Below, one piece after another: positions 21,001 to 27,000 of a DNA stretch of 64,000 bases (position 1 is the first letter of the stretch; the number at the start of each line of letters is the position of its first letter). A program made the position numbers. Origin of the DNA: Spirochaetia bacterium (GTDB lineage: Bacteria > Spirochaetota > Spirochaetia > DSM-27196 > Salinispiraceae); the NCBI GenBank assembly GCA_038204425.1, contig JBBRCZ010000001.1:512639-576638 (forward strand), given 5' to 3'.

Positions 21001-24000
21001 TAGGTCTTTTCTCAAGCTCCAGTTTTTGGCCAAAAAATTTCCAAATAGCTGTTCTGGCCGACCACCGGCATAGATGTCTGCGTGGTCAAAAAAGCTAAAC
21101 CCGCATTCTAATGCTTTTAGAATAACTAACTCGGCCTTTTGAGTTTGTTGCTCAAAGCTTGCTTGACTATGCCATGCTCCGGCCAGTCCCATACAGCCAA
21201 AAATTAGCCTGGAAACACTAAGATCTGTATTTGGTAAACTTAAATACTCCATCTTGATCCTTTTGGCACTTACAAAATATTTTTGTGGAGAGCCTCAATA
21301 GCAGCGTTTAAGGCTGATTGGGCAACTACCAACGACAAGTTGATGTCGCTGGCGCCCATGGTTATCAGTCTTACTGGGATTGCTTGCAAAGCACTAAAAA
21401 CTTTTAGCAGGAAATCGTTACTTGAGTATAGATTGCGGCCAACAACCGAAACTATCGCAAGCTCAGATTCTATGCTTAGTTCAGAGAATTTTTCCAAATC
21501 ATGTTTTAACGACTTAATGTGCTGTAGATTGTCTACCGTTACTGAAACACAAACCTCGCTAGTGGCAATCAAGTCAACGCTTACTTTGTACTTTTCAAAG
21601 ACCGAAAAGATGGAATCCAAAAACCCCGAGGCATTTAGCATACGTGTTGATCTAACGGTAATTAAGGTAATGTTCTTCTTGCCAGCAATGGCGAGCGGAC
21701 CTTGTCTTTGACTATCTTGATCCTTATCCGAAGAAATGCAGGTTCCACTAAGCTGCGGTCGGTGCGTGTTCTTAACCCAGACCGGAATGCCAAGCTCAAC
21801 CGCTGGAACAATGGTAGACGGGTGAATAACCTTGGCCCCAAAAAAAGCGAGTTCAGCGGCTTCGCCATAGCTGATTTCCGGCAAGACTCTTGCATGAGAA
21901 ATTATCCTTGGGTCAGTAGTCATTATTCCGTCAACATCAGTCCAAATTTCTACTGATTCTGCCGCAAGAGCAGCTCCAATAATTGTTGCAGAATAGTCAC
22001 TGCCACCTCGACCCAAAGTAGTCGTTACTCCATGCTCAGTACTGCCCAAGAAGCCTTGAGTTATAATAAGGTGTCCCGGTTTGGAAACGACTTTTTGGCG
22101 AATTAAGGGATAGCTGAGGTCTTTTTTGAGTTGGGCGCAACCAAACTGATCATCGGTTTTTATAAACTCGCGGGCATCCAAAAGACTGACGGAAATACCT
22201 TTTGCCCTAGCTCGGTAGTAGAGAAGCAAAGTTGATAGACGCTCGCCCAACGACAATAGCATATCATAACTTCTGGCACTCACTTCTCTAATTAGACACA
22301 ATCCTTTGACCATGGCGCTTAGGTCCGTCGTGAGTTTTCTTAGTGCAGAAGTACAGTCCCCAAGCAGCTGATCATGCTTGTCTAACAGCTCTCTCGCGAC
22401 TTTGAGGTGAGATTCTTCTATGCCTAACAAAAGGTCTTGCGCTTCTGCAAGGTTTCCCGCATTGGCATACTTACTAACCGAGACCAGTTTGTCGGTGACG
22501 GTGGTCATCGCGCTAGAAACCAAGACTGGAGATTTTGACAATACCGACTGAGCAATGTTGAGGGTTTTTTCAATCATGTCGGCATTGCCAACACTCGTCC
22601 CACCAAATTTTAAGACTAACATAGCAGCAATACTTATACCATGTTTGCATGATCGTCAATTACCATGGCTTTTGGAATGGTTGCAAACCGACTTGTCTGT
22701 CTTTATACTGTCGACATGAATAAAGCTTTTGCTCAATCAGTCACCAAAGCAGTTTCATGCATCCGCAAGCATACTGATTGTGTGCCACAAGTTGGCTTGA
22801 TTCTGGGCTCAGGAATGTCTCATGTTGCTCAAGCATTGGGTGGAACCGAGATATCATTTTCCAAGATCAAAGGATTCCCAAACACCAGTGTAGTTGGTCA
22901 TCAAGCAGCTTTGGTCATTAGTCAAGAATGCGCTATTATGGCGGGTAGATTTCATTACTATGAGGGGCATCAGCTTGAGACCGTTGTAAAACCCGTTGCC
23001 GTTTTAGCGAGTCTGGGCGTTAAAACTTTAGTAATAACCAACGCTGCTGGTGGCATAAGGGCTGATTTACAACCAGGCGACCTTGCCTTGATTGAGGATC
23101 ACATCAATTTACAAGGGAACAACCCGTTTATTGGACCCCATGATCCACAATGGGGGCCGCGTTTTCCCGATATGTCAGAGGTCTATAGCTCTCGACTTCG
23201 CAAGCTCTGCGTCAAGCTCGATCCTAAGCTCAAATCAGGCATCTATGCCGCCTTAAGTGGACCAAGTTATGAAACGCCAGCTGAAATTCGCATGTTAAAA
23301 ACAATGGGGGCTGACTTAGTGGGCATGTCAACAGTTCCTGAAGCATTGTTCGCCAAGTCGCTCGGCTTAGAAGTAATCGGAATATCCCTTGTGACTAATG
23401 CTGCGGCTGGTTTAAGTGACAAAACACTAAACCATGACGAAGTGATTCAAGTAGGAAAAACTGCCGAAGCCCGGCTTATAGTCCTGATTGCATCCTTAAT
23501 TAGAGCTTTAAATAGTCGAGCACTTTAGATGCCCAAAAATTTCCCCAAAAAGAAGGCCGATGTTTTTGAAGGCGTCCAACTAAGCACCAGAGTGGCATCA
23601 GAGGCTGTCGAAAGAATGCGAGAGATTCTCAAAGATCATCAAGGACACGAAGTGCTTTTTGTTTGTGAGCTTGATACGGATGGCAAAGTCAAGTCGGTCA
23701 TTGACCTTGCTCATGGAAGTCCAGGTATGGTACCGGTACCTCGCAAACAAGTCAGTTGCGGACAAGTAATTATCCACAACCATCCTTCTGGCTCGATCAG
23801 ACCTTCCGATGCCGATGTCCGACTTTCTGCCCAGCTTGCCGATGAAGGAATTGGAAGCTGGGTTGTGGATAGTGATTTAAAAAGACTGTGTGTAATTGTG
23901 GAAGCCTATCGAGACAGTACGGTACTCTTAGACGAGGACAAGCTCGCAGCAATGATTGACTCAGGTGGCGCCTTATCTCGTCTGGAGCAGCATTTTGAAC

Positions 24001-27000
24001 CCCGGTCTGGGCAAATATCCATGTTACGTACGGTGGTTAAAGCATTTAACCAAGAAACCCTTGCCATTATCGAGGCGGGTACTGGTATTGGAAAAACGTT
24101 TGCTTATCTTTTACCTGCCGCCTCTTGGGCTTTGCAAAACAATGAGCGCATTGTCATTAGCACTGCCACCATAAACCTCCAGCAACAAATAATTGATAAG
24201 GACATTCCCTTGATTTCAAAGGTCCTAGGTAGCGAGATTAAAGCAGTCTTGGCTAAGGGTCGAGGAAACTATCTTTGCAAAAAACGATTGCATGAGGCGA
24301 TTGATGAAGAAGGTCTTCTGCTTGATCCCCAAGACGAACTTAGTCACATTGCCCAATGGGCTACAACTAGCAAAGACGGTTCCAAAAGCGATTTTGCTCA
24401 ACTACCAAGCGAAGGTGTTTGGAATAGAATAAACGCTGATGCTGACAACTGTAGTGGCCTATTGTGTACCTACAGAGACGAGTGCTTCTTTTTTAAGGCT
24501 CGTCGCGAGGCAGCTAGTGCCAACATTGTAGTCGCCAATCATCATCTTCTATTTGCCGATGCTGCGATGAGGGCGCAAGGATTAGGTTTTGATGGCACGG
24601 TAGTCTTACCTTCTTTTCAAAGACTCGTCCTAGACGAAGCCCACAATATTGAACAAGGAGCCACCAACTTTTTTGCGCTAACGCTCAACAAGTGGATGGT
24701 GCTAAAATATTCAAATTTAATTCTTAGGCGCAGACGTGGCAGGAACTTTGGTATTCTCGCCCAACTTAATGCTTCCTTACCACAAGACAGCGTCAAAACA
24801 CTTAACCTAGACCAGATAGAAATGCAACTTTTGGCATGCAAAGAAGCTACGTTTTCCTTTGACCAAGAAGCTATCGATATTCTTGGCGGGCAGAATACGA
24901 TTCGCATAAACCTGCAAACTCAAGCACTTCTGGGCAAGTTTATGGTCACAGTTACTCACCTCAACAACAAGTTGCTCCAACTGGTTGAAATACTACAAAA
25001 TTTGCTTACAGAGATTGAGGACCTGCAACTTAGTGGCGAATTGCCAGGTTTCATAGATCTTCAAACTATGATCCGTCGCATCTCAAGCCTTTGCAAAACC
25101 TGTCAGACTTTTAGCAGTTTTGAAACACAAAATGACAAGGTTTTGTGGATCGAACGAGAGCGCCTTTCATCAGGGGAAAATTTCGCTCACTTGATAGCCT
25201 GCCCTCTCGACATCGCTCCACGACTTCGCGAGGCATTGTTTAAACCCTACGCAAGCATAGTGCTCACCAGCGCCACCTTAACAACGAACAATCGTTTTGA
25301 TTGGTGGGCGCAACGACTTGGCCTAAGAGAAGCAAAAACCATCGCTGGTCCGACTCTTCAAGCGCCGCCCGATGAATGGTCAGGCTACGATAGTTCTTGG
25401 TACGGTTTTGACCAACAAAGCCAGTGGAAGGAAGAAAAGAAGGCAACAGTTAGTGATCCCCACGCACTAGAAAGCTTACAACTGCCATACATCGACAGGT
25501 CAGCCTTTCGCATCAGGGTTCAATCACCCTTCGACTACCTAAATCGAGTGCTATTGGCGATACCGGACGATGCCCCCGACCCTGCTTCCGAAAATTATCA
25601 AAACTATCTAAGTAGCTTTATCGTTAAGGGTCTACGCATCTCTGGTGGACACGCCTTAGTTTTGTTCACCTCATATGACATGCTGAGTAAAACTTGGGAG
25701 CAAGTAAAAAAGCAACTAGAAGGAAGTAATGTAACTCTGTTTAAACAGGGTGATATGGAACGATCCCGCCTGCTCAGTCAGTTTACTCTTGATATCAGCA
25801 GTTGTTTGTTTGCAACCGAAAGCTTTTGGGAGGGGGTCGACAGTCCGGGGCAAACACTGCAAGTGGTGATACTATGCCGTCTGCCTTTTAAAGTCCCAAG
25901 TGAACCGCTTCAGATAGCTCGTAGTGAAACAATTGCTGCCAATGGCGGAAACCCATTTACTGAGCTTTCGGTCCCTGAAGCGGTTATGAAGTTTCGTCAG
26001 GGTTTTGGGCGCCTTATGCGTCGCACAGAAGACTTTGGAATAGTCTTGGTGCCAGACCGGCGCATAGTGAGCAAATCATATGGAAAGACTTTTCTTAATA
26101 GTCTGCCACCTTGCGGCAAGATAGTTGCCTCAACTGATGTAATTTTTGAAGAAATGCAGCGATTTCTTACCAGAATGCGTACGACATAAAAAAAGCTACC
26201 CTAGAATCACTTCTATGGTAGCTACGCGCCACAACACCTTCTTAGGACTGATGACCAAAGAATTATTGGATGATGGCAATCAATTCAGAAAAACGAACAA
26301 CCAGATGTTCATCGGCTTCTATTTTAACAGCAGTGCCCACGTACTTGTCATACATAACACGATCGCCAGCTTTTACTTTGATAGTTTCGTCATCGCCAAT
26401 TGCGACGACGGTTGCTACCTGTGTCTTTTCTTGGGCATTTTGTGGAATAAAAAGTCCACCCTTTGTCTTTTCTTCGGCGGCCTCGACTTTTATCAAGACT
26501 CGATCGCCAAGTGGCTGAAGTTTCATGAAAACCTCCTTATTTAGAGTTTGTCAAAAATAGGTATTTATTAACTTGTTTAATATATGGACAAGATCGACCA
26601 AGGTCAAGGAAAATCGTAAGCCATTTCGCCTGCAAGCAAAGCAATATTGATTAAAATGGGTCATAATGACGCGGCTTACTTAGCGCCAGCATTGGTTGCG
26701 ACATTCTGACCCACATAGCTCGATCTTAAACATCAATTCTACTTTTCTGACCCATTTTGTGAAAATTTCTTAACTCAGAACTGATTTTTTTTAACTATTC
26801 TGTTCAAAACCGCTTGATTTCAACTTGTCAGAAAACACTCATTTCTTTTTATTTTTCACCCTTTTCATTATATCAAAAGGAATTAATTGATCCCCCAAGT
26901 TTAATTTGGATACAGAAAATTTTCTTGGCACGAGTATTGCATTATAGCAAGTGGAGGATTTCATGAGCACTTATCAAAAACCCATTTCACAGTACAGAAA

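Follow-up and report, generated by a model that had tools for sequence, protein, structure and literature searches.

A chromosomal RadC-like DinG in a Spirochaetia bacterium: a JAB domain with an intact JAMM site fused to an Fe-S helicase

The gene at 23529..26189 (+) of the window (the whole 64-kb stretch of DNA analyzed here) belongs to the published "RadC-like DinG" subgroup. It is a housekeeping gene on the chromosome and, in a genome-wide search, the sole DinG-family gene of its genome. For its product we tentatively favor a helicase-coupled JAB domain that cuts the phosphodiester backbone, a chain of steps to which we assign, nuclease step included, a probability of about 0.4. The fusion of a RadC-type JAB domain to a DinG/RAD3-like helicase was reported in spirochaetes in 2011, and the excerpted text of that study proposes a nuclease by displacement of an exonuclease domain (Iyer 2011, PMC3239186), a hypothesis repeated in 2017 (PMC5512222). 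The subgroup was named and modeled in 2025 (Cheng 2025, PMC11981726), with Desulfuromonas soudanensis A0A0M4DKS9, Kuenenia A0A2C9CFG9, Spirochaeta thermophila E0RQL2, Brachyspira A0A3B6VGN9 and Sulfidibacter A0A8A4TVB1 among the members in its Table S1. The gene is therefore a typical representative of an established family.

The survey's finding of a RadC-type JAB domain joined to a DinG/YoaA helicase held: one 886-aa ORF encodes both, the helicase carries a four-cysteine Fe-S domain, and the structural model agrees (full-length pTM 0.87). The JAB/JAMM domain (residues ~20-125; 23586..23903, +) matches Pfam RadC above the cut-off and is modeled with a pLDDT of 93.5 as a helix, five strands (42-48, 54-62, 80-85, 109-114 and 119-124) and a second helix. 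The JAMM/MPN+ metallopeptidase motif reads E-x(n)-H-x-H-x7-S-x2-D, and both this motif and the MPN fold are present in the fused domain. Its metal-binding motif is indeed intact, with E41, H83, H85, S93 and D96 aligned as E41 ... H83-N-H85-P ... S93-x-x-D96 (23649..23816, +). Further along lie the Q-motif (R159, Q162) and Walker A (A183-T190) of motor domain 1 (24003..24098, +), the Fe-S domain cysteines C250, C308, C313 and C319, placed by alignment (24276..24485, +), Walker B with the DEAH box at 369-372 (24633..24644, +), and motor domain 2 (Helicase_C_2) with motif VI Q824-R828-R831 (25629..26111, +). Motor domain 1, Fe-S domain, Arch and motor domain 2 are all found with their ATP and DNA motifs, the set used as a criterion by Cheng 2025, and the helicase fold is that of DinG (E. 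coli DinG 6fwr, E 5.8e-41). A helicase with every one of these motifs is very probably an active 5'-3' ssDNA translocase, as expected from its family members DinG, YoaA and XPD. An insertion of ~50 residues (602-652; 25332..25484, +) is predicted to be disordered (pLDDT < 50) and is largely private, as columns 600-660 are more than half filled in only 1 of 101 other rows. A frameshifted or chimeric ORF was rejected, since the whole fusion lies in a single frame at 74 of 80 named loci; five of the others are cut off by the end of their contig, and the remaining one (L110) is interrupted by an in-frame stop.

The fusion is not rare: the JAB part falls within the match in 92 of the 98 genomes of the order listed. 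In an alignment of 102 sequences, 29 of them order loci chosen by whole-protein score, E41, H83, H85, S93 and D96 are each invariant (102/102). All four Fe-S cysteines occur in the protein itself, at 29/29 order loci and in 60/72 distant representatives. This invariance, read with the known JAMM chemistry, makes it probable that the JAB domain is catalytic, with one zinc held by H83, H85 and D96 and a water molecule activated by E41. A copy in Fusobacterium has lost the metal residues of its JAB domain, which indicates that the domain can persist without catalysis. We rejected stand-alone or other-partner forms of the fused JAB subfamily: among the best 150 matches of a subfamily search, 39 had no helicase match, and of 11 odd matches scanned with Pfam the four looked up are single sequences on contigs of at most 2.4 kb, which we read as fragments.

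On the nuclease reading, the helicase would open an R-loop, or DNA that is damaged or stalled, leaving the JAB domain to trim or nick the displaced strand, as the ExoDinG exonuclease and the EndoDinG endonuclease do from the same position. That the JAB domain acts on whatever the helicase tracks seems to us reasonably likely. Besides the intact helicase motifs and cysteines on a DinG fold and the invariant JAMM residues, this reading draws on the two tested N-terminal enzyme modules at this position, both of which are helicase-coupled, unrelated nucleases: a DEDD exonuclease in S. aureus (excerpts of PMC12345164) and a PD-(D/E)XK endonuclease in Finegoldia (excerpts of PMC13650095). It was argued in the excerpted Iyer 2011 text and in the 2017 paper, which considers a ubiquitin-tail groove unlikely in RadC-type JABs (PMC5512222), and it fits a single-copy gene, found through the order, in a housekeeping block. 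In the literature searched we found no paper testing the JAB domain of a RadC-like DinG. The survey's proposal that the JAB domain, with its intact metal site, takes the place of the ExoDinG exonuclease and probably works with the helicase on DNA is reasonable, but it is not new.

Several observations count against a nuclease. Structure comparison of the fused domain returned PfJAMM1 and RadC, with isopeptidases as the best matches, PfJAMM1 first, and no nuclease among the 50 matches listed; isopeptidases are likewise the best structural matches of the RadC-like domain in Cheng 2025. Characterized JAB domains are peptidases, according to the excerpted text of Iyer 2011, the Fusobacterium copy lacks the metal residues, and radC mutants have normal damage sensitivity, as cited by Cheng 2025. 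The displacement argument, moreover, requires kinship with ExoDinG, and here the helicase body leans weakly to YoaA. In a helicase tree from which the Cheng 2025 reference proteins are absent, the 18 intact-JAB rows form one branch (support 94/94), with the query inside a spirochaete branch (100/100). In a 29-row tree, itself weak for having one long outgroup and four ExoDinG rows, all Bacilli, 794 of 1000 bootstrap trees join JAB-DinG to YoaA and 98 join it to ExoDinG. The YoaA profile also scores highest on the helicase (536 bits, versus 479 for ExoDinG). A sister relation of JAB-DinG to ExoDinG may hold but is not supported by these sequence comparisons, which leaves the nuclease argument dependent on an insecure kinship.

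A close rival, which we consider possible though rather unlikely, keeps the amide chemistry of JAMM enzymes and has the JAB domain cleave an adduct (peptide, protein or acyl) linked covalently to DNA, when the helicase encounters or unfolds it, by analogy a one-chain bacterial counterpart of FANCJ and SPRTN. The complete JAMM set, serine included, and the match to PfJAMM1 agree with it; so do excerpts in which FANCJ, a helicase of the XPD family, is reported to unfold DNA-protein crosslinks before SPRTN acts (PMC10175854), and others that tie ExoDinG to crosslink repair (PMC12345164). Yet the argument is one of analogy, known JAMMs recognize ubiquitin-like tails rather than arbitrary peptides (excerpted text of PMC3239186), RadC-type domains are said to be without the ubiquitin-tail groove (PMC5512222), and among the neighbors scanned in the window there is no ubiquitin-like, E1-like or adduct-repair gene. 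In its most specific form, which we consider improbable, the protein would be a single-chain machine that repairs DNA crosslinked to protein or peptide, in which the Fe-S helicase would run 5'-3' into the adduct and unfold or expose it while the tethered JAMM domain hydrolyzed an amide bond; one polypeptide would thus do the work of FANCJ and SPRTN in vertebrates. We found no published proposal of RadC-like DinG in this role in the open-licence literature. If true, it would describe a JAMM enzyme that DNA, not a ubiquitin-like fold, directs to its target, and it would point to HhH-RadC working by the same chemistry.

It is also unlikely, in our estimate, that the JAB domain serves mainly as a DNA-binding, partner-binding or regulatory module, or as a peptidase for a protein partner, its zinc being structural or acting on protein rather than DNA. 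Such a module may replace HolC, the partner of YoaA: no PF04364 match was found in the 95.6% complete genome, with positive controls in E. coli and Caulobacter, and holC was likewise not found for the subgroup in Cheng 2025. The degenerate site in Fusobacterium, with a similar observation in the excerpted Iyer 2011 text, points the same way. Against it stand the general-base glutamate and the serine, both invariant, which is more than a purely structural site would seem to need.

The survey had further read the fusion as a Rosetta stone for RadC, on which stand-alone RadC itself would partner a DinG/YoaA helicase. A full-length radC (UPF0758_N plus RadC) does lie at 16519..17271 (+), 6.3 kb from the fusion gene; Pfam RadC is matched by 52/52 members of the fusion family, and sequence comparison places the fused domain closer to RadC (2qlc, E 2.3e-7) than to other JABs (AfJAMM, E 0.4). 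However, the two genes are at least 120 kb apart in all eight relatives that have both on one contig, and the neighbors of radC here are missing from the radC loci of 29/29 relatives. We therefore rejected a conserved linkage, and the nearby radC looks like coincidence. Of 99 genomes in the order, 90 keep a full-length radC, which coexists there with the fusion gene; in 81 of these 90 the genes lie on separate contigs of fragmented assemblies, which say little on linkage. The 80 named loci lack radC, but with flanks no longer than 5 kb they could not reveal a 6.3-kb spacing either, and they were excluded from this evidence. The fused domain is only 22% identical to that of the neighboring radC, with a BLAST match spanning only 37 residues, and a recent duplication of this radC into dinG was rejected on these grounds. 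Fused JAB domains share a mean identity of 24% with HhH-RadC domains and 48% among themselves and, judged by these identities, are a separate subfamily. The fusion thus names a partner for its own JAB subfamily but not demonstrably for RadC: with a separate subfamily, radC retained and its proximity not conserved, the step to stand-alone RadC is weak and the partnership very doubtful.

Immediately upstream of the fusion gene is a purine-nucleoside phosphorylase (PNP; 22665..23528, +), whose stop codon abuts the fusion's ATG, so the two are likely co-transcribed. PNP precedes the fusion at 16 of 29 order loci and at 23 of the 80 named loci, and groES, the convergent downstream neighbor (Pfam Cpn10; 26263..26526, -), is near it at 36/80; the block here reads lysC / PNP / dinG / groES / sigma factor. 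A supposedly conserved small gene downstream (26270-26518, +) proved to be the antisense shadow of groES. A lexA gene is present. Five SOS-box patterns, which may differ from the box of this lineage, had no hits in the upstream regions of lexA, PNP, dinG, radC and the transporter gene that precedes radC, a result that says nothing on SOS control. That the JAB domain is a base- or nucleotide-processing hydrolase of the deaminase-like fold, which would cut a C-N bond in a modified base or nucleotide and share a function with PNP, is very doubtful. All 23 PNP-bearing named loci carry spirochaete titles, and PNP is no more constant there than lysC, groES and the sigma factor, a pattern that suggests inherited gene order.

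The helicase fusion is a convenient protein with which to approach the chemistry of RadC-type JAB domains, because its helicase defines the class of substrate and serves as an internal control of activity. This approach was already published in 2011, and the copy described here offers nothing beyond cultured members such as those of Spirochaeta thermophila or Desulfuromonas. What we add is modest: a near-universal gene in its order with an invariant site, a link to radC that is not conserved, and a kinship with ExoDinG that is not secure.

Compared with known systems, the protein shares with the RadC-like DinG of Cheng 2025 its architecture, the five-strand JAB domain with E, H, H and D, the four-cysteine Fe-S domain, the C-terminal helix, the same JAMM peptidase as top structural match and the finding of no holC; it differs in the private disordered insert, in H62 (R in 71/102) and in S115 (N in 96/102). 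With the fusion in the excerpted Iyer 2011 text it has in common the domain pairing, spirochaetes as first-named hosts, the displacement reading and inactive fusobacterial copies, whereas our small tree did not recover the relation stated there, "closely related to exonuclease-fused versions"; the exonuclease-fused lineages in their supplement may be different ones. ExoDinG (S. aureus, Bacillus; 8zef) and EndoDinG (Finegoldia magna; 9kqh) are likewise XPD-family helicases with an N-terminal enzyme module, the Bacillus type being ~30% identical over the helicase, but their DEDD and PD-(D/E)XK modules are nucleases of demonstrated activity, whereas the module here is a JAB fold of putative activity. 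With a JAB in place of the DEDD exonuclease and a score below the cut-off of 789 bits for PRK08074, the protein is not an ExoDinG. YoaA (NF053712) is the best-scoring helicase profile and groups weakly with it in the tree, yet the fusion stays below the 680-bit cut-off, carries an extra N-terminal domain and has no holC found in its genome. Stand-alone RadC (UPF0758; PF20582 plus PF04002; 2qlc) shares the JAB fold and the HNHPSG-x3-PS-x2-D motif at ~24% identity, but the fusion lacks the UPF0758_N domain (no PF20582 match) and reaches 26.4 bits against a cut-off of 180 for NCBIfam RadC (NF000642/TIGR00608), which sets it apart from stand-alone RadC.

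The gene at 23529-26189(+) is a single unbroken ORF of 886 aa, in which a RadC-type JAB/JAMM domain (Pfam RadC, residues 25-105; 31.0 bits against a cut-off of 22.1) precedes a DinG/YoaA-type helicase (DEAD, residues 169-238; DEAD_2, 313-384; Helicase_C_2, 701-861). Among NCBIfam profiles, the helicase scores highest with YoaA (536 bits; cut-off 680), followed by Bacillus-type DinG (479 bits; cut-off 789) and E. coli-type DinG (405 bits; cut-off 598), none of which reaches its cut-off. The motifs that the survey's finding quoted for this gene and for the free-standing radC are present in the sequence. 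Across the host genome (95.6% complete), the gene is single-copy: no other gene matches Helicase_C_2, and just one other matches RadC above cut-off. The fusion is real and well formed in architecture and fold, and both its architecture and its interpretation are already known. A helicase insertion of ~50 residues between residues 602 and 652 (25332-25484(+)), aromatic- and acid-rich and predicted to be disordered, is nearly private to the host's protein.

Residues 1-144, used as a query, match 513 clusters (50% identity) with E ≤1e-3 and 217 with E ≤1e-10. Among the best 150 matches, 72 are at least 750 aa long, all with the helicase, and 78 are shorter, with part of the helicase in 39. A match was found in 99/99 genomes of the host's order; where an N-terminal row was listed (n = 98), it starts at or before residue 30 in 92, host included, and later in six. 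By record title, the best 80 named loci comprise 61 spirochaetes, 14 members of other groups (Hydrogenedentota, Nitrospirota, Calditrichota, Sumerlaeota and others, some possibly mis-binned) and five without a name. One locus titled Desulfovibrionaceae (L141) has ORF coordinates identical to those of two spirochaete loci (L131 and L139), which suggests a mis-binned contig. The fusion is complete in a single frame in 74 of these 80 loci. The JAMM motif pattern was matched in 76, in a scan that itself selected on the histidines, and is visible by eye in the remaining four, where inserted residues separate E from HxH. The site is intact in the host and invariant in 102 of 102 aligned sequences. 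Four loci (L098, L127, L130 and L143) carry ~20-35-residue insertions between JAB strand 2 and the HxH strand and keep the catalytic residues. At L110:3460-5973(+), one in-frame stop breaks the fusion after the first ~256 query residues, and may be a sequencing error, a pseudogene or a split gene. Its order-wide and named-locus distribution makes this fusion the usual form of DinG in the host's lineage, and the earlier caveat that it is rare falls away.

The fusion gene lies within an inherited spirochaete block and a stable housekeeping context. Its neighbours in the window are housekeeping genes, G+C is even around it (0.44-0.46 at 10-26 kb), and the stop codon of a purine-nucleoside phosphorylase (PNP) gene abuts its ATG. 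PNP is directly upstream in 16 of 29 loci from the host's order; among the 80 named loci, many of them short, groES is nearby in 36, a sigma factor in 33, lysC in 24 and PNP in 23. The host's groES (26263-26526(-)) has no adjoining groEL, which lies on a different contig; a plus-strand ORF at 26270-26518, apparently conserved among relatives, was rejected as the antisense shadow of groES. Further along are a ComEC-like gene directly upstream of rsmA (31404-32858(-); 484 aa, Competence domain as sole match) and two long ORFs with no family above cut-off, at 34910-37300(-) (796 aa) and 37435-40080(-) (881 aa; a weak spermidine-synthase-like stretch at ~334-472). Cumulative GC skew reaches its minimum at ~40000-44000, where skew turns from negative to positive; dnaA is on a different contig.

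JAMM chemistry relies on zinc and a glutamate-activated water. Judging from their families, the JAB domain would bind zinc, with its glutamate activating water, and the helicase would carry an Fe-S cluster and translocate 5'-3'; more loosely, the JAB site would act on whatever the helicase tracks. We assign a probability of about 0.4 to cleavage of the nucleic-acid backbone. Cleavage of the amide bond of a covalent adduct is a somewhat doubtful alternative, favoured by retention of the JAMM serine and by the description of FANCJ unfolding crosslinked proteins ahead of SPRTN in the relevant part of PMC10175854. A binding, regulatory or protein-directed role is unlikely, and base or nucleotide processing improbable. 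The host genome contains lexA; no holC was found in it (95.6% complete), and the region upstream of the fusion gene gave no match to five SOS-box patterns, which may not be those of the host's lineage. The substrate of RadC-type JAB domains is worth an experiment, and the host's copy opens the question no further than the literature does.

A separate question from JAB chemistry is whether stand-alone RadC partners a DinG/YoaA helicase, as the survey's finding proposed from the fusion and a nearby radC. A full-length radC (16519-17271(+)) does lie seven genes (6.3 kb) upstream, outside the inherited block. Free radC is present in 90/99 order genomes: eight relatives carry both genes on a single contig, at distances from 120 kb up to megabases, and the remaining 81 have them on separate contigs. 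Neighbours of the host's free radC were seen at 0/29 relatives' radC loci, and the closeness is best read as a rearrangement. Fused JAB domains share 48% identity with one another (n = 75) and free RadC domains 73% (n = 30); fused versus free domains share 24% (maximum 34%), and the host's fused domain and neighbouring RadC 22%. The proposed partnership is a long shot.

Backbone cleavage by the JAB domain would follow from the argument of Iyer 2011 (PMC3239186) that this domain takes the place of the ExoDinG exonuclease and would hence be a nuclease. At the level of primary sequence, the first ~250 residues of ExoDinG are replaced by the JAB domain plus a short helical linker. A tree of 29 helicase bodies (LG+G4) included the host fusion, 17 named JAB fusions chosen from 74, a Fusobacterium fusion, four ExoDinG, five YoaA-type proteins and one Vibrio DinG. 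The 18 intact-JAB rows form a single branch (94/94), with the host protein among spirochaetes (100/100). The tree leaves its backbone open: JAB groups with YoaA in 794/1000 bootstrap trees and with ExoDinG in 98/1000, given one long outgroup and ExoDinG from Bacilli only. Its position for the Fusobacterium vincentii fusion (L146:1078-3546(+)) is likewise unfixed; this protein aligns across the JAB region and has lost E, H and H, and lost JAB residues in some fusobacteria are remarked in a passage of Iyer 2011 (PMC3239186). With that outgroup and sampling, the tree settles the claim of 2011 neither way, yet it removes one prop of the displacement argument. On the other side, that argument gains from two unrelated nucleases now shown to act from the same N-terminal position, coupled to the helicase: a DEDD domain in S. 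aureus DinG, in the account excerpted from PMC12345164, and a PD-(D/E)XK domain in Finegoldia DinG, in that from PMC13650095.
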